From: a virus
Lineage: Duplodnaviria > Caudoviricetes
Virus record (IMG/VR): IMGVR_UViG_3300020044_002438
Coordinates: 1-53,037 of that record
DNA length: 53,037 nt
Strand: one strand, 5' to 3'
Made by a program: the position numbers and the translations under genes. A model generated the notes under the pieces. It made no database searches. It worked only from the letters and a program-made list of their open reading frames with translations, and was not told the DNA's origin. This document shows positions 35,792 through 53,037 of this stretch, in pieces (position 1 is the first letter of the stretch; every line of letters starts with the position of its first letter).

Positions 35792-36124
35792 CTATGTTCT
35801 TAATTCAGCCCAATTAGATACTACTCCTGTACCGCTAGAAACAATGTATGTAGCCCCATTAGGTACTATGGCTCCTAAAAAATTAGTTGCGTTATTAATT
35901 CCACTTCGTGCAGCAACTACCCCAGATACTGTAATAGTTGAGTCGCCCTGAATTCTTACCCCAATTTGAATAGACCGACCAGTAGTATTAGTATAAGTAC
36001 CACTATTTACCCGTGCAGGGCTTGTAAATGCTTGCCACGTTTGCCCTGAACCTATCATAGCCGCAGCGGAAGTTTGAATTGTTGCGTCGGGGAATTCTAC
36101 CCCTGTAGTTACTAATTTTGTCAT
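35792..36124 (-). CDS. stand-alone tail-fibre tip domain protein (paralogue 4)
   Basis: G.GQTWQ...R...TYTNTTGRSI...IVPNGATY...WAELR. Confidence 0.75.
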   Translation of the reverse strand: MTKLVTTGVEFPDATIQTSAAAMIGSGQTWQAFTSPARVNSGTYTNTTGRSIQIGVRIQGDSTITVSGVVAARSGINNATNFLGAIVPNGATYIVSSGTGVVSNWAELRT

Positions 36125-36128
36125 TTCT

Positions 36129-36452
36129 TTACCCTCTTAATTCACGCCAATTAGATGCAGAGCCAGTCATAGAATATAATCCGTTATTTGGAATAATTGC
36201 ATTAAGATGATTAGTTGCATCCCCTACTCCGCTCCGCGCCGCTATAACCCCACCAACAGTAATGTACCCGTCTCCTATGGTTGTTATAGCCACTGATATA
36301 GACTTTCCTGATGAGTTTGTATAATTAGTTCCAGCTTGCCGTGTAGGACTTGTAAATGCTTGCCAAGTTTGACCTTGCCCAATATCTGTTACTAAAGTAG
36401 TTTGTATTGTCGCATCGGGGAACTGCACCCCTGTAGTTACTAATTTTGTCAT
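36129..36452 (-). CDS. stand-alone tail-fibre tip domain protein (paralogue 3)
   Basis: GQGQTWQ...YTNSSGKSI...IIPN...WRELR. Confidence 0.75.
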   Translation of the reverse strand: MTKLVTTGVQFPDATIQTTLVTDIGQGQTWQAFTSPTRQAGTNYTNSSGKSISVAITTIGDGYITVGGVIAARSGVGDATNHLNAIIPNNGLYSMTGSASNWRELRG

Positions 36453-36464
36453 TTACTTATCCTA

Positions 36465-37358
36465 TTATGGCGTTGTATTTGAAACAATATCACTTAGCGC
36501 TGTAAATATACCCGCTGAAGTCATGGACGCTACGTTTACCCCATTATAGTTAAAGTTTAGCTTTGTTCCACTAGGTGTTATGCTCCAACCCCCTGTGTTA
36601 GCTATAGACCCTGCGGCTAGCCCTGAAGCTGTTCCCGTGCAATTTGTTAGTACCCCTGATGCTGGGGTACCTAATGCTGGAGTAACTAGAGTAGGACTTG
36701 TGGCTAATACATTATTACCTGTACCTGTATTTGCAACAGAAACAAGTACTTTAGAAGCATTGGTGGCCACTGCACTGGATGCAGTAAGTGCGTTAAGTGT
36801 GGGGGTGGCGTTTACTGTTAGCGTATCTCCTACTGCATCACCTAAAGTTGTATTACCTGAAGTTGTTAAATCAGTAGCGGTTATCGCGCCTGCAGCAAAT
36901 CCACCTGACCCGTCACGTAATACTAATGTATTAGCAGTTGCTGAGGAAGAATACTGGAGAGTAACAAAATAGAACTCAGTACCATCGCAGTATACAAGCG
37001 AAGTCGTACCATTAGCAATACTAACCCCAGTACTTGATGGGGTCTTAATTATTATTGCGAATCCGCCTGATGTATTATTCCTAACTACGTATAGCTTATT
37101 TACCGCTGGGGCTATGATGTTTCTGATAGCTGAGTTTGTTCCGCCCACTACAAGCACTGCATTACGCGCTTGGTCCGAAGTACCGTTTAAACTAGTTAAC
37201 GTAACATTGGCGTTAGCCATTGTAATAGACTGAACGCCGGTAATAGCCTGCTCAAGTAGCGTACCTAGGTTTGTATTCGTAGTAGTGCCCCACGTACCTG
37301 ACTGGTCGCCGTTACCGATAAGCTCTAATTTAAGACTGGTTGAATAGGTGCTTGCCAT
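36465..37358 (-). CDS. tail fibre protein
   Basis: MASTYS...LELIGNGDQSGTWG..TNTNL attachment motif; SPTLVTPALGTPASG fibre repeat. Confidence 0.8.
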   Translation of the reverse strand: MASTYSTSLKLELIGNGDQSGTWGTTTNTNLGTLLEQAITGVQSITMANANVTLTSLNGTSDQARNAVLVVGGTNSAIRNIIAPAVNKLYVVRNNTSGGFAIIIKTPSSTGVSIANGTTSLVYCDGTEFYFVTLQYSSSATANTLVLRDGSGGFAAGAITATDLTTSGNTTLGDAVGDTLTVNATPTLNALTASSAVATNASKVLVSVANTGTGNNVLATSPTLVTPALGTPASGVLTNCTGTASGLAAGSIANTGGWSITPSGTKLNFNYNGVNVASMTSAGIFTALSDIVSNTTP

Positions 37359-37390
37359 AATTTATTCCTTATAATTGAATGTATTGTACA

Positions 37391-39220
37391 TTAATATTGT
37401 TCACTGTCAACGTCAACCCAATCAGGTGGCTGGTCATTATCTACATCTGTCCAAGTACTCGTTTGCGTATTATTTACTGGGGTCCACTCTGAACTCTGAG
37501 TATTATTAACTACCGCCCAAGTATTTGCTTGAGCATTATCTACGTCTGTCCAAGTACTTGTTTGAGTATTTGCTACCGGTACCCATCCTGGAGTTTGTGA
37601 TTCATTTATTGGTGTCCAAGTTCCTGCCTGAGTATTGTCTACCGGATTCCAAGCGCTAGTCTGTGCATTGTTTATTGGCGTCCATGTTGAGTCTTGTGTA
37701 TTATTAATTGCCAACCAAGCGCTTACTTGAGCATTATCTATTTGCCCCCAATTAGCCGCGTTCTCAGCAATTATCTTAACCCATCCTGATGTAGCTGTTG
37801 GGTCTAATAATGTGAAGTTTTCAATTAGCGCTACCGCAAACTGTGCTTGTATTGATAATGCATCCGCACTTGAGAAATTTTCTACGATACTTAACAAGGA
37901 CTGCATGCTTATTGTGCTTGCATCAGCTATCGTAATGTTTTCAGTTATCGCCGAAACAAACCCAGCCCCGATAGTTCTTATATCATTAAGCGTAGTGGCT
38001 TCTGATACTGCTTGTACAAACTGCGCTGTGATAGATTCTAAGTCATCCACCGTTATTGGTTCTGTTCTAGTAACACCAAATTGTGCGTTAATAACCTCTA
38101 CGTCGTCTATCGTTATTGGTTCGATACGCGATTGCAGAAATGCAGATTGTTGAGTGCTGCTATCTGCCAGTGTAATTGGTTCGATACGTGTTTGTAGAAA
38201 CGCCGACTGCTGACTGCTGCTATCTTCTAATGTAATCGGTTCTGTTCTAGACACACCGAACTGCGCGGTAATGGCTTCTAAATCATCTACTATAATCGGT
38301 TCTGTCCTAGTAACACCAAACTGGGCGGTAATGGCTTCTAAATCATCTACTATAATTGGTTCTGTTCGTGTTTGTAAAAATGCAGATTGTTGCGTACTAC
38401 TATCTGCCAATGTAATTGGTTCAGTGCGAGTCTGTAAAAATGCTGATTGTTGAGTACTACTGTCCGCAACTGTTATTGGTTCAGCCCTAGTAACACCGAA
38501 CTGAGCAGTAATAGCTTCTACATCGTCTATTATAATTGGCTCATCAAGCGATTGTAAAAATGTAGATTGCTGTGTGCTACTATCGGCTAATGTAATTGGT
38601 TCAGTAAGTGACTGTAAAAATGCGGATTGCTGTGTGCTACTATCGGCTAATGTAATTGGTTCGGTTCTAGTAACACCAAACTGGGCAGTAATAGCCTCTA
38701 GGTCATCTATTATAATTGGCTCAGCAAGTGATTGTAAAAATGACGACTGCTGAGTACTACTATCTGCCAACGTAATTGGTTCTGTTCTAGTAACCCCAAA
38801 CTGGGCATTGATAACAGGGATGTCAGCTAGTGTAAATGGTTCGGCTCTAGTCTGTAATGCAGCAAAATACGGGACTAGTATTTCTGCTACTGTAATTGGT
38901 TCAGTTATAGTAACACCAAATTGGGCAGTGATAGCAATAGTATCTGCTACGCTTACAGGCTCAGTTCGGCTTTGTAAGAACGTGGATAGTTGAGTACTTA
39001 AGTCACCTACCCCAAAGTTTTCTGTTAACCCAAAGATAAATAACCCAGCTTGAGAGTTGTTATCAGTTACCGTTATGTTTTCAGCTATTACTGGGGCGTA
39101 TGCGTAAGTCTGGGTGCTACTGTCTGCTAGCGATATCCCTTCAGTCATTGTCAGAAAAGAAGGCGGGTTGCCTGCTAAACTAGCAAAGGGAGTCTGAGCA
39201 AACGCAGAGGTACCAAACAT
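37391..39220 (-). CDS. repeat protein (20-aa and 11-aa periods), tail-fibre region
   Basis: MFG.SAFAQTPFASL N-terminus; about 22 repeats of 20 aa, then about 12 Trp-anchored repeats of 11 aa. Confidence 0.85.
   Translation of the reverse strand: MFGTSAFAQTPFASLAGNPPSFLTMTEGISLADSSTQTYAYAPVIAENITVTDNNSQAGLFIFGLTENFGVGDLSTQLSTFLQSRTEPVSVADTIAITAQFGVTITEPITVAEILVPYFAALQTRAEPFTLADIPVINAQFGVTRTEPITLADSSTQQSSFLQSLAEPIIIDDLEAITAQFGVTRTEPITLADSSTQQSAFLQSLTEPITLADSSTQQSTFLQSLDEPIIIDDVEAITAQFGVTRAEPITVADSSTQQSAFLQTRTEPITLADSSTQQSAFLQTRTEPIIVDDLEAITAQFGVTRTEPIIVDDLEAITAQFGVSRTEPITLEDSSSQQSAFLQTRIEPITLADSSTQQSAFLQSRIEPITIDDVEVINAQFGVTRTEPITVDDLESITAQFVQAVSEATTLNDIRTIGAGFVSAITENITIADASTISMQSLLSIVENFSSADALSIQAQFAVALIENFTLLDPTATSGWVKIIAENAANWGQIDNAQVSAWLAINNTQDSTWTPINNAQTSAWNPVDNTQAGTWTPINESQTPGWVPVANTQTSTWTDVDNAQANTWAVVNNTQSSEWTPVNNTQTSTWTDVDNDQPPDWVDVDSEQY
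37410..37790 (-). repeat. 33-bp tandem coding repeats (Trp every 11 aa)
   Basis: Units of the form NNTQTSTWTDV. Confidence 0.85.
37790..39145 (-). repeat. 60-bp tandem coding repeats
   Basis: Repeats stack vertically in the 60-nt lines (e.g. 38281/38341, 38581/38641); two unit types, TEPITLADSSTQQSAFLQTR and TEPIIVDDLEAITAQFGVTR. Confidence 0.9.
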
Positions 39221-39444
39221 TACTCAGCCTTAAGCGCCTTTAGCTCATCTAGTGTTTCTGCTGTTTCTGCAAGTTTAGTAATGTCACGCAAGCGTTGTTT
39301 CTCCGCCACGATAGCAGAGGTATCGGCACCTGATTCTAATGCACGTTGAAATGCCACATCTTGTTCTTGCAGTAGCGGTGTTCGTTCAGCGCGTAACCGT
39401 GCCTTAGTAATCTCTTTAGCTTTATCAAAGTTAATAATAATCAC
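39220..39444 (-). CDS. tail fibre assembly chaperone-like protein (C-terminal half type)
   Basis: GTG start overlapping the upstream TGA; KAKEI...R.ER.PLL...DVAFQRALE...EKQRLRDIT. Confidence 0.75.
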   Translation of the reverse strand: MIIINFDKAKEITKARLRAERTPLLQEQDVAFQRALESGADTSAIVAEKQRLRDITKLAETAETLDELKALKAE

Positions 39445-39635
39445 GCTGCATACTCCCACGCATCTCTAAATGTTCTGTCTGACGGAATATCTGAAGCATC
39501 CACAATCTTAAACTCCGCCCCAGCAGGCACATCTTTCTCTGCTAGTTCTCCAATGGTATGCGATGCTAACCACTCAGCAGTTGGGATTATTATTGCCACA
39601 CCCCCGTTATCTGTTTTGTATATAATTCTTTGCAT
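39441..39635 (-). CDS. tail fibre assembly chaperone-like protein (N-terminal half type)
   Basis: RIIY...GGVAIIIP...KDVP.G...IPSDRTFRDAW. Confidence 0.75.
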   Translation of the reverse strand: MQRIIYKTDNGGVAIIIPTAEWLASHTIGELAEKDVPAGAEFKIVDASDIPSDRTFRDAWEYAA

Positions 39636-39638
39636 ACT

Positions 39639-39974
39639 TTACCCTCTTAATTCTGACCAGCGACTAATTGAGCCAGCCGCACTATATGTTGAGCCATTTG
39701 GTACAATAGCGCCTAAATAATTATTTGCATCGTTTACACCACTAGTAGCGGCTACAACCCCACCTACTGTAATACTTGACCCAGTAATAACTTGTATACT
39801 TATCGAAATAGATTCACCTGTAGAATTAGTATATGTAGTACTAGCTGCTCTAATTCCAGTAAAATCTTGCCAAGTTTGCCCTTCACCAATTGCATTTAAG
39901 GCTATTGTAACGGTTGGGGCGCTAGTAGCCTGTGCTGTAACTGTATTTGCGGTTCCATTTACTACAACTGGCAT
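39639..39974 (-). CDS. stand-alone tail-fibre tip domain protein (paralogue 2)
   Basis: GEGQTWQD...TYTNSTGESI...IVPNGSTY...WSELR. Confidence 0.75.
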   Translation of the reverse strand: MPVVVNGTANTVTAQATSAPTVTIALNAIGEGQTWQDFTGIRAASTTYTNSTGESISISIQVITGSSITVGGVVAATSGVNDANNYLGAIVPNGSTYSAAGSISRWSELRG

Positions 39975-39984
39975 GATTTATCCT

Positions 39985-40320
39985 TTATCTTAATTCTGAC
40001 CAGCGTTGGTTTGGTCCAGTTGATAAAACATATGTAGACCCATTTGGCACAATAGCCCCAATAAAATTGGATGCGTTATTAATACCACTAGTAGCGGCTA
40101 CAACCCCCCCAACTTGAAGCACGGAACTACCTTGAACTTGGATACTAACCTGAATAGATTTACCAGTAGAATTTGTATATGTAGTACCAGCTACTCTACT
40201 TCCTGTTACAACCTGCCAAGTTTGACTTTCACCAATTGGGTTTGCGGCTGTTGTAGCAGTTATGGCGCTAGTAGCCGCTGCCGTGATTGTATTTGTGCTT
40301 CCGTTTATATCTACTGGCAT
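39985..40320 (-). CDS. stand-alone tail-fibre tip domain protein (paralogue 1)
   Basis: GESQTWQ.VTGSR..GTTYTNSTGKSI...IVPNGSTY...WSELR. Confidence 0.75.
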   Translation of the reverse strand: MPVDINGSTNTITAAATSAITATTAANPIGESQTWQVVTGSRVAGTTYTNSTGKSIQVSIQVQGSSVLQVGGVVAATSGINNASNFIGAIVPNGSTYVLSTGPNQRWSELR

Positions 40321-51275: not shown

Positions 51276-51710
51276 TTATGCTGTGAATGCAGTAGGGTTA
51301 GCTGAGCCATCGTCGTTACGAACAGTGTATGCAACTGATAACGTACCAGCAGAAGCAGCGGTAGCCGTAAAGCTTAATACAGCATCTATAGGACCTATGT
51401 TTGCAAGTGTGCCAACGTTGGCAGCGGTAACGACAAGTGTGTTAAAACCCGCAGCGGTTGATAATGTACCAACTATAACGCCGCCAATAGTAACGTTAGG
51501 GGTACCTGCGGCACCTGTGGTCATCAAAGACTGTACAGCATGAATCAAAGCCCCTGCAGGAAGCATAACTGTAACAGCGGAACCAGCAACAAGTGTAACG
51601 TTCTGAGTAACCAGCGTAGCGCCCATATTACGCACTGTACCTGGTGTAGTGCCTGTAGTGTTTTTTACTGTACCCAATAACCATGGGCCTAAATGAGATG
51701 CGAATGACAT
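51276..51710 (-). CDS. capsid-associated (decoration-like) protein
   Basis: MSFASHLGPWLLGTVK...LPAGA.I; AAGGA RBS at 51718-51722; position just downstream of the capsid locus. Confidence 0.75.
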   Translation of the reverse strand: MSFASHLGPWLLGTVKNTTGTTPGTVRNMGATLVTQNVTLVAGSAVTVMLPAGALIHAVQSLMTTGAAGTPNVTIGGVIVGTLSTAAGFNTLVVTAANVGTLANIGPIDAVLSFTATAASAGTLSVAYTVRNDDGSANPTAFTA

Positions 51711-51722
51711 AATAGATTCCTT

Positions 51723-51796
51723 CATACAAAGTAAAGCTCAATAGTCTTGTATGCGTCTGCCGGGACAGTCTAAGGAGCCGGATTAATATTCCCGGT
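51723..51796 (-). ncRNA. structured 5' leader (two hairpins with loop-loop complementarity)
   Basis: Stems CCGGGA/UCCCGG and CAUACAA/UUGUAUG; loops GCUCcuUAG and CUAuuGAGC are complementary; RBS abuts the second stem. Confidence 0.65.
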
Positions 51797-51806
51797 TGAT
51801 ACAGAC

Positions 51807-51835
51807 TTTATACTATGTTATTGTTTTAGTGTCAA
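51807..51835 (-). promoter_or_regulatory. sigma70-type promoter
   Basis: On - strand TTGACA-N17-TATAAA; predicted TSS near 51800. Confidence 0.8.
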
Positions 51836-51853
51836 CTGATTAGTGGAGTATTC

Positions 51854-52225
51854 ATGCCATATAAAGACCCCGCAGTTCGCAAGGCAAAAGCAAAGTTATA
51901 CTCTAAGAAACATTATGAAGGCAACAAACCAGCTCAGATTGAACGGGTAAGGCTAGGTAAGATAAAGAAACGCGTCCAGTGGGAAGCCTATAAATCTACG
52001 CTTGCGTGTGCCAACTGTGGTGAGAACCATCCATCAGCATTAGATTTTCATCACGTGGTACCAGACCCTGCCAATAGAAAGATAAGTGAATTAATACAGA
52101 ACGGAGCTTATAAACTAGCCCGTGAAGAGATAGAAGCCAAATGCATAGTGCTATGCGCTAACTGTCACCGCAAACATCACCACGAAGAACGGCAATTAAA
52201 AGCAGGGCAAGTTGCAGAAAGGTAG
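51854..52225 (+). CDS. HNH endonuclease (Zn-binding), antisense to the late operon
   Basis: CANCG...LDFHH...KCIVLCANCHRKHH; GGAG RBS. Confidence 0.88.
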   Translation: MPYKDPAVRKAKAKLYSKKHYEGNKPAQIERVRLGKIKKRVQWEAYKSTLACANCGENHPSALDFHHVVPDPANRKISELIQNGAYKLAREEIEAKCIVLCANCHRKHHHEERQLKAGQVAER

Positions 52226-52312
52226 GCGTAGATTTAGTAGTTGTTACATGTAACGCAGAAAGCCGAAAAACTCGTTACTTACTACATCCTCTAGTGTCGG
52301 CTTAACCGCCTA
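52223..52312. ncRNA. candidate pseudoknotted structured RNA
   Basis: TAGGCG/CGCCTA, GATTTAGTAG/TTACTACATC (one mismatch) and GTAACG/CGTTAC stems; loop AAGCCGA complementary to TCGGCTT. Strand undetermined. Confidence 0.6.
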
Positions 52313-52334
52313 AGGTATATATACAAAGTATATA

Positions 52335-52406
52335 CTATTTGTTCATTACGTACATTGTAACTTCAAAGCCAAAACGCATTTCTGTAGCTGCTGGAGATGT
52401 CCACAT
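52335..52406 (-). CDS. pqqA: pyrroloquinoline quinone precursor peptide PqqA
   Basis: Not in the ORF track. MWTSPAATEMRFGFEVTMYVMNK with W..P...R.GFEVT.Y (the ExxxY core); AAAGGA RBS 8 nt upstream. Confidence 0.95.
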   Translation of the reverse strand: MWTSPAATEMRFGFEVTMYVMNK

Positions 52407-52495
52407 GATTATATTCCTTTAAAATTTGTACACGTCAGTGTGTACGTGTTCACATTCTGCTCTTTTCTATACACATCACAATACGGAAAACCATT

Positions 52496-52520
52496 AAAAA
52501 AGGCCCACCGAAGTGAGCCT
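52496..52520 (-). terminator. intrinsic terminator after the major capsid gene
   Basis: On - strand: AGGCTCAC-TTCG-GTGGGCCT followed by TTTTT. Confidence 0.85.
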
Positions 52521-52540
52521 CTTATCTTACCTAGTGTTTA

Positions 52541-52906
52541 TTAAGCACCAGCTGAACCGTACATACCTAATGGGTCAGACCAACCGAATGAATAACGCTC
52601 ACGTGATTTGTAGCGAACGTTACCTGTATCGAAGTCACCATCCATTGAGTTTTGCAATGGGGTACGAACAAAGTGTTTCATACCGTTTGGCACGTCAGTA
52701 GTTAAGAACCATGCATTTGTGTCAGTCAAGAAGTGATTGATTGTGTAACCTTCAGCTACAGAACCGTTGTTCTTGATTGCGTTGATGTCATTGTCGTTAG
52801 TACCAACACGAAGTTCAGTTTCCAACAAGCGAGTTGCAACGAATTGCAATGCTGGTGGAACAACCAATTTCTTCGGTTTAGCTGCAATCAATAGACCACG
52901 CTCATC
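52541..52906 (-). CDS. major capsid protein, C-terminal part only (5' end broken)
   Basis: DERGLLIAAKPKKLVVPPALQFVA...DNDINA...NHFLTD..AWF..TD.PNG.KHF.R...GDFDTGNVRYKSRERYSFGWSDP; capsid-like sequence stops upstream of 52906. Confidence 0.9.
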   Translation of the reverse strand, partial: DERGLLIAAKPKKLVVPPALQFVATRLLETELRVGTNDNDINAIKNNGSVAEGYTINHFLTDTNAWFLTTDVPNGMKHFVRTPLQNSMDGDFDTGNVRYKSRERYSFGWSDPLGMYGSAGA

Positions 52907-52916
52907 GCTATTACGT

Positions 52917-53037
52917 AGCAGGGCAAGTTGCAGAAAGGTAGGCGTAGATTTAGTAGTTGTTACATGTAACGCAGAAAGCCGAAAAACTCGTTACTTACTA
53001 CATCCTCTAGTGTCGGCTTAACCGCCTAAGGTATATA
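52917..53037 (+). repeat. exact 121-bp copy of 52201-52321 at the window end
   Basis: Base-by-base identity from AGCAGGGCAAG to TAAGGTATATA, offset 716. Confidence 0.95.

Follow-up and report, generated by a model that had tools for sequence, protein, structure and literature searches.

Comparison of related sequences identifies positions 52225–52310 of the window (the whole 53,037-nt stretch of phage DNA analysed here, IMG/VR record IMGVR_UViG_3300020044_002438) as a member of a strongly conserved family of structured RNAs found in many freshwater phage sequences. The covariation among its relatives indicates that the fold is real, with four short helices and a pseudoknot kept by compensatory changes. 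The explanation we favour, to which we give about an even chance of being right, is that this is an autonomous 86-nt small RNA (sRNA) module carried as an accessory gene, or "moron", by phages of freshwater methylotrophs, and that it is neither a cis-regulator of the neighbouring pqqA gene nor a partner of the neighbouring HNH nuclease.

The source record is a whole, linear, ~84% complete virus and is podovirus-like. Replication genes occupy the + strand from 1 to 19.9 kb and structural genes the − strand from 20 kb to the right end. Within the structural half, the − strand of 35846–40114 holds diverged tandem and dispersed repeats inside small tail-fibre-like genes, with units of 60–240 nt and spacings of 328 nt. 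Read along the − strand, the right end carries the C-terminal part of the capsid gene, a hairpin with a U-run, pqqA, an A+T-rich inverted repeat and the RNA element, beyond which lie the HNH gene on the + strand, a promoter-like site, a conserved leader and the next structural gene (Table 1). Equivalent hairpins follow the capsid stop codon in relatives, and in the window pqqA is a short cassette placed behind the terminator of the capsid gene, with 24 nt between its end and the RNA, which is on the same strand. The promoter-like site is absent from the list of a simple scan, whose rule demands a T at the end of the second hexamer.

Table 1. Features at the right end of the window and helices of the RNA element.
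Feature	Position	Strand	Basis and remarks
Major capsid gene, C-terminal part	52541..52906	−	Pfam Phage_capsid_4, profile positions 151–260 of 262; cut off at 52906
Terminator-like hairpin and U-run 3′ of capsid gene	52496..52519	−	Read directly; simple terminator scan did not list it
pqqA, 23 aa	52335..52406	−	Pfam PqqA (PF08042), 37.9 bits against a cut-off of 21.1; ORF list
A+T-rich inverted repeat, pqqA-RNA spacer	52313..52334		Read directly
RNA element copy 1, 86 nt, pseudoknotted	52225..52310	− (RNA reads 52310 to 52225)	Covariance-model match, 114.9 bits
P1	52307..52310 with 52225–52228	−	3 of 4 pairs covary in alignment A7 (GC/AU/UA/CG types)
Pseudoknot 5′ strand, AAGCCGA	52297..52303 with 52260–52266 in P4 loop	−	7 bp
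P2	52290..52293 with 52229–52232	−	Pair 18-82 of four types (UA, CG, AU, GC); pair 20-80 with one G-U
P3	52281..52285 with 52237–52241	−	5 of 5 pairs changed on both sides (A7)
P4	52273..52278 with 52250–52255	−	5 of 6 pairs changed on both sides; loop-closing pair often G-A
Small HNH endonuclease gene, convergent	51854..52225	+	Stop codon ends on the RNA's last base
Likely promoter of next structural genes, TTGACA-17 nt-TATAAA	51807..51835	−	Read directly
Chimeric contig end	52907..53037		10 unmatched nt (52907–16), then exact copy of 52201–52321

The leader downstream of this promoter is a separate observation. It spans ~75 nt (window ~51726–51800, − strand) upstream of a 149-aa gene (51725..51276), is conserved and strongly covarying, and was found in 58 of 79 capsid-relative loci before the gene that follows the capsid module. 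Its helices include a CYRGG/CCYRG pairing, a highly variable helix of 8 bp and another that stops 1–2 nt short of the Shine-Dalgarno sequence. The leader has no Rfam match at E up to 10, contigs from freshwater RNA libraries cover part of it (51741–51781) in three of four runs, and from its sequence it looks like an undescribed translational-control leader.

A second copy of the RNA (52941–53026) lies within an exact 121-nt repeat, in which 52201–52321 recurs as 52917–53037 at the very end of the record. Nine relatives match the window collinearly as far as 52906, beyond which they continue with capsid sequence, and capsid-like sequence also continues past 52906 in RNA-library contigs from all four runs. 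Because the window departs from both the relatives and the RNA-library contigs at this point, copy 2 is a chimeric or assembly join and not a second gene, and the capsid gene is truncated by the join.

An exact 32-mer of the element matched at least 100 stretches of viral contigs, in which the conserved block is bounded by the P1 stem and flanked by unrelated sequence. To offset the bias of this probe, we also used patterns that exclude the main type, and true members made up 12 of the 14 viral matches and 30 of the 31 metagenome matches. Covariance models added a copy in a bacterial chromosome and five copies among 112 phage pqqA loci. The resulting set comprises 150 copies and 42 distinct sequences, and alignment A7 holds 37 distinct sequences; closely related contigs account for many of the 150 copies, and the counts given here refer to copies and cannot be read as independent events. 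A length of 86 nt is shared by all 42 distinct sequences and by six copies found by covariance model alone, where no spacing was imposed, and one further copy (L099) carries a 1-nt insertion. A pattern forcing a base other than T at column 27 found no match in viral contigs.

We accept the fold because of covariation and not because of folding stability. In A7, standard pairs fill 97.9% of cells compared with 83.4% in shuffles, both-sided changes occur at 17 of the 26 base pairs, and pairing falls to 33–46% when the partners are slid by 1–3 columns. The minimum free energy is no better than chance on either strand, at −16.7 kcal/mol (z = 0.31) on the − strand and −17.4 kcal/mol (z = −0.37) on the + strand. 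The fourth pair of P1 also changes, in L287 and L312, and one of the four pairs of P2 covaries in A7. The P4 loop is 17 nt long (52256–52272) and holds the 3′ strand of the pseudoknot, which is fully paired in A7; across the 42 distinct sequences four of its seven pairs (9-50, 12-47, 13-46 and 14-45) change on both sides, and the exceptions are one U-G (pair 11-48) and one U-U mismatch.

These comparisons support most of a fold that had been proposed in a sequence-only reading of the window and redraw the rest. Of the 6-bp P1 proposed there, the inner four pairs (52225–28/52307–10) hold, with compensatory changes in relatives, but the outer two (52223–24/52311–12) occur in this window only. 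The helix proposed at 52250–55/52273–78, which is our P4, shows both-sided changes in relatives, and the 7-bp pseudoknot between 52260–66 and 52297–303 is present and covarying. A 10-bp helix at 52231–40/52279–88 can be drawn in the window but lies 3 nt off the conserved register, and relatives keep two short helices instead (52229–32/52290–93 and 52237–41/52281–85). A palindrome at 52243–54, suggested as an alternative partner for the third helix, is present, but columns 57–68 vary freely (e.g., in L203, L215 and L216); since the palindrome is not conserved the alternative pairing was dropped, and we regard it as a local accident.

Conservation is stronger outside the helices, with an entropy of 0.458 bits in unpaired columns and 0.650 bits in paired ones. 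The fixed length together with these conserved unpaired columns suggests a tight three-dimensional constraint, and typical base-pairing sRNAs are much less constrained in their fold.

The strand of the RNA was judged from non-Watson-Crick pairs. Of 39 such cells, 16 are G-U when read on the − strand and one when read on the + strand, and this balance indicates that the RNA runs with the capsid and pqqA genes and antisense to the HNH gene. Conservation following a reading frame, the outcome that the sequence-only reading had set against a folded RNA, was not found: 6 of the 42 distinct sequences have stop codons in the + strand peptide frame, variation shows no 3-base periodicity (entropies of 0.545, 0.608 and 0.569 at the three codon positions), and we rejected a coding origin. 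A tRNA or tmRNA was also rejected, as ARAGORN listed 0 such genes and no cloverleaf in the window. The same applies to an intrinsic (Rho-independent) terminator. Just 16 of 58 distinct downstream contexts have at least five T in the 8 nt past P1, the window itself has four, and the terminator scan lists none at the element, in keeping with the earlier remark that it is not a simple terminator. The exact length and the invariant loops also argue against a plain terminator.

The surroundings of the RNA vary considerably while its borders stay sharp at P1 and the flanks are unrelated. A pqqA gene lies within 300 nt of 97 of the 150 copies, upstream on the same strand in 93, downstream on the same strand in 3 and convergent in 1, leaving 53 copies without. 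Many of the copies directly 3′ of pqqA have no other terminator in between, and the pqqA-RNA spacer varies from 7 to 60 nt in 71 of 100 main-subfamily loci among the matches listed. Other copies follow a terminator that comes after pqqA (L214, L252) or follow canonical terminators more generally (L214, L215, L217, L232, L252), lie 4 nt past a tRNA-Met (L217) or 6 nt past ssb (L209 type), stand upstream of the pqqA promoter (L210 type) or converge with pqqA (L353). A −10-like box is found 5–13 nt upstream of the RNA in L208, L213, L216, L221 and L353. On the other side, a convergent ORF ends within ~14 nt of the RNA 3′ end in 90 of the 150 copies, encoding an HNH protein in 36, a hydrophobic membrane peptide of 33–37 aa in 42 and other products in 12, and in 60 copies there is none.

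Two further observations were made at these loci. The 33–37-aa peptide is the last gene of an opposing operon (L010 3280–3381, L004 4045–4155 and ~40 other loci), and its stop codon lies inside the RNA 3′ end in 42 of the 150 copies, an overlap of convergent genes that resembles type I toxin-antitoxin layouts. Additionally, another conserved non-coding stretch separates the capsid terminator from the RNA in the diverged contigs L215 and L219, ~90 nt before the latter.

This range of settings bears on the possibility that the element is a cis-acting 3′-end module closing the capsid/pqqA (or lysis/pqqA) transcription unit, where it would stop RNA polymerase or block 3′-to-5′ exonucleases, stabilise the pqqA message and insulate convergent genes. 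We consider this unlikely. In its favour, pqqA lies upstream on the same strand in 93 of the 150 copies and within 60 nt in 71 of the 100 listed main-subfamily loci. The element closes the transcription unit in most loci, frequently against the end of a convergent ORF, and in relatives that lack the HNH gene the TTGACA-17-TATAAA site of the next promoter begins ~9 nt past the RNA 3′ end. It also fits that there is often no other terminator after pqqA, that a U-run directly follows P1 in some subtypes (L215, L230, L252), and that a pqqA locus without the element (L142) has an ordinary terminator in its place. However, most downstream contexts fall short of the U-run, and the element is also found after canonical terminators, upstream of pqqA in three copies, inverted in L353 and with a −10-like box of its own. 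Furthermore, a terminator or exonuclease block needs neither an exact length nor many invariant unpaired bases.

The link between the RNA and pqqA is real but loose. When phage pqqA loci were gathered with a back-translated DNA pattern of the 23-aa PqqA, the RNA was present in 10–13 of 120 among the matches listed (5 of 112 loci new to the collection, and 5 to 8 of the 8 already in it), and because so few of the listed loci carry it, the RNA is not needed for pqqA. It is rare in loci selected independently of it, and of 80 close capsid relatives 1 carries it. Both the variety of contexts and the occurrence of three pqqA arrangements speak against control of that gene in cis, and a riboswitch or other cis-regulatory leader was rejected, with pqqA downstream on the same strand in 3 of 150 copies and a convergent ORF at the 3′ end in 90. 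As for pqqA itself, it is a widespread phage accessory gene, its back-translated pattern occurring in at least 120 viral stretches (including L257–L368), and freshwater RNA libraries contain pqqA-like contigs of very great depth, the summed word depth reaching 2610, a value that may include host copies.

A ligand-binding aptamer, acting as a riboswitch-like sensor or as a sponge and perhaps tied to PQQ or methanol metabolism, would suit the aptamer-like pattern of conservation. The variety of pqqA arrangements would in that case point to a link in trans rather than in cis, and relatives of Atu_At1, an RNA discussed below, precede stress-protein genes in the same orientation. We are nevertheless strongly doubtful of an aptamer. 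Most copies have no same-strand gene downstream, which makes classic riboswitch control unlikely, 53 of the 150 have no pqqA within 300 nt, and no result points to a ligand.

The HNH gene converges on the RNA. Its product matches PHROG HNH families at 1e-20 and 1.3e-19, scores 19.1 bits with Pfam HNH against a cut-off of 21.4, and contains a CxxC...CxxCH motif that was read directly from the ORF. As the sequence-only reading had observed, the element begins at the HNH stop codon (52223–25), of which it takes in the final base. In L059, L006, L077 and L050, which lack the HNH gene and are otherwise collinear, ~390 nt (~51829–52221) have no counterpart, and this insert lies exactly between the promoter-like site and the 3′ edge of the RNA. 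An HNH gene adjoins 36 of the 150 copies and is missing from the other 114. Three diverged kinds of HNH gene (the main type, that of L208, and that of L214, L217, L230 and L252) end exactly at the same RNA edge, and like HNH genes also follow capsid terminators where there is no element (L122, L123, L134). The insertion here, the diverged genes at one edge and the HNH genes without an element suggest the behaviour of a mobile endonuclease and not that of a partner, and from its sequence the gene looks like a free-standing mobile endonuclease that landed against a conserved sequence. Phages carry free-standing HNH homing endonucleases, and the gene here is likewise small, present or absent between collinear genomes and placed at the edge of a conserved sequence.

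These results leave little of the proposal that the RNA is a partner or guide of the small HNH nuclease, which had been put forward from the sequence. Adjacency in 36 of 150 copies is what speaks for it, and the gene is on the opposite strand, absent from most copies, an insertion in this genome and found elsewhere without the element; we hold such a role to be extremely improbable. The same findings do not support the wider suggestion of an undescribed system composed of HNH, RNA and pqqA. It is also possible that the element works at the level of DNA, as a recognition or homing site of the HNH enzyme or as a recombination site with a folding single strand. The shared edge at which the three kinds of HNH gene end would be expected of such a site, and the element is near-identical among contigs whose flanks are 75–90% alike, which could reflect co-conversion during homing. 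We give this a very slight chance, since compensatory changes in five helices fit a folded single strand and not the duplex target of a protein, 114 of the 150 copies have no HNH gene, and a role as a homing target would be compatible with an RNA function while leaving the fold unexplained.

Searches against Rfam 15 gave no match to the element at the gathering score, and together with the covariation this bears out the earlier suggestion of an unannotated structured non-coding RNA without an Rfam family at gathering level. When stretches of 126 and 136 nt were searched at E ≤ 10, the element matched no known Rfam ribozyme (hammerhead, twister, pistol, hatchet, HDV-like or others), which agrees with the failure of the sequence-only reading to match it to these classes. 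A literature search on pqqA in Methylophilales phages and on Atu_At1/RF02496 found no description of the phage RNA. An IMG/VR catalogue (PMC10690425) lists 8,495 candidate structured RNAs; its main text makes no mention of pqq, HNH or Methylo, and its supplementary tables may list the motif.

Wherever an Rfam match was listed, the best was RF02496 (Atu_At1), on the right strand and over the whole model, where the window scored 20.3 bits, L221 24.9 and L213 26.5, compared with a gathering score of 60 bits; four other family members had no Rfam match at E up to 10. The reverse search, with our model R3 against four Atu_At1 loci (L222–L225) and filters off, gave nothing significant for the whole RNA, the best on-target result being a local 11-bit match on a hairpin. 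Atu_At1 shares the order of parts with the phage RNA: P1 closes the structure, a 5′ strand with a terminal GAC complements the hairpin loop, an internal loop contains GGAUG, and the hairpin loop has the form UUUUUC-(pseudoknot)-UUUCU. The four Atu_At1 loci keep the loop pairing with different letters; three of them form all seven pairs and the fourth forms six of the seven. Unlike the phage RNA, Atu_At1 is ~22 nt longer and has an extra hairpin 3′ of the main one; this second hairpin is deleted in the cmscan alignments, and the phage family has 8 variable unpaired nt in its place. The Atu_At1 loci are G+C-rich and lie in 6–8 Mb genomes of the sampled phylum (Rhizobiales by the Rfam name) and not in phages. 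Since it has the extra hairpin and the whole RNA was not recognised, we do not treat Atu_At1 as the same family, and the sequence comparison leaves it as a possible distant relative or an RNA of like design.

The architecture of the phage RNA also invites comparison with the twister ribozyme. In both, short helices are stacked and the terminal loop folds back to pair with an internal strand close to P1, although the phage RNA has one 7-bp pseudoknot and twister two short ones. Twister, pistol and hatchet ribozymes are usually found in phage genomes, between genes and near mobile genes, and the phage RNA occurs in phage genomes, in varied intergenic contexts and beside mobile HNH genes. With its small size, fixed length, invariant unpaired bases and a pseudoknot from the loop to an internal strand, the element could be a self-cleaving ribozyme of a new class that trims phage transcripts. 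We judge this quite improbable, as no known Rfam ribozyme family matches at E up to 10 and no cleavage site can be inferred from the sequence. The published description of At1 from Agrobacterium tumefaciens (PMC3384568) is of a discrete sRNA of 113–115 nt detected by dRNA-seq and Northern blot and most abundant at high cell density, and if Atu_At1 is related its accumulation at full length also speaks against self-cleavage.

The RNA is rare in the bacterial genomes searched. An exact 20-mer gave 19 matches in species genomes, of which 17 are chance matches, most of them plainly inside coding sequence, and two are real and lie on MAG contigs. Model searches found the RNA in 2 of 151 genomes of the family of the Methylotenera MAG and in one of four genomes from a single genus; a third, weak genome match (G090) lies inside a coding ORF and was rejected. 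This rarity argues against a conserved host sRNA in the genomes searched. The one diverged copy in a bacterial chromosome (L205, G069:C135) sits between an aldolase-like gene and pyrG, in a gap of ~2 kb without a long ORF (~2970–4925 of L205). The RNA was not found in three other genomes of the same genus, and metagenome contigs L228 and L253 share upstream sequence with L205.

In a collection of cultured phages, 15 records matched the window, of which none cover the element and 10 match the pqqA part. Contigs from four freshwater RNA libraries, compared with window positions 51700–52916, cover pqqA and the capsid gene, and the RNA element is represented by one 141-nt contig at a depth of 2.5 in one run, from which neither strand nor ends can be read. 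We therefore take these contigs as neither for nor against expression of the RNA.

To return to the sRNA module that we favour, 52310 to 52225 on the − strand encodes the stack P1–P4, with the P4 loop pairing to the strand between P1 and P2. The element occupies variable slots that also hold pqqA, tRNAs and HNH genes, and its RNA would be made either as the tail of an upstream transcript, here that of capsid and pqqA, or from its own promoter. We infer that it accumulates as a discrete species and acts in trans, as a compact folded RNA that would bind a protein, a ligand or another RNA. That Atu_At1, the known RNA closest to it, is itself a discrete sRNA also favours this reading. Such a module would resemble sRNAs that are derived from 3′UTRs or stand alone, as some copies of the phage RNA end an mRNA while others have a promoter-like box of their own. 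It would also resemble phage morons, its place being a variable one beside accessory genes, with a terminator on one side and the next promoter on the other.

Few phage-borne RNAs have such comparative support, with five helices including a pseudoknot, a fixed length and invariant loops across 42 sequences, and conservation of this kind is typical of RNAs with a specific binding partner or a catalytic function. It is conceivable, though fairly improbable, that the RNA represents a new functional class in which the precise fold serves catalysis or recognition, either a new self-cleaving ribozyme or an aptamer for PQQ or a molecule of methanol oxidation, that is carried with pqqA to reprogramme the one-carbon energy metabolism of the host. 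The RNA may also provide a handle on Atu_At1, an sRNA validated in 2012, as the two may share a fold, and it is short enough for immediate bench work. The RNA travels with pqqA, an accessory gene for the cofactor of methanol dehydrogenase, and since the hosts are abundant freshwater methylotrophs, it may bear on how phages steer one-carbon metabolism.
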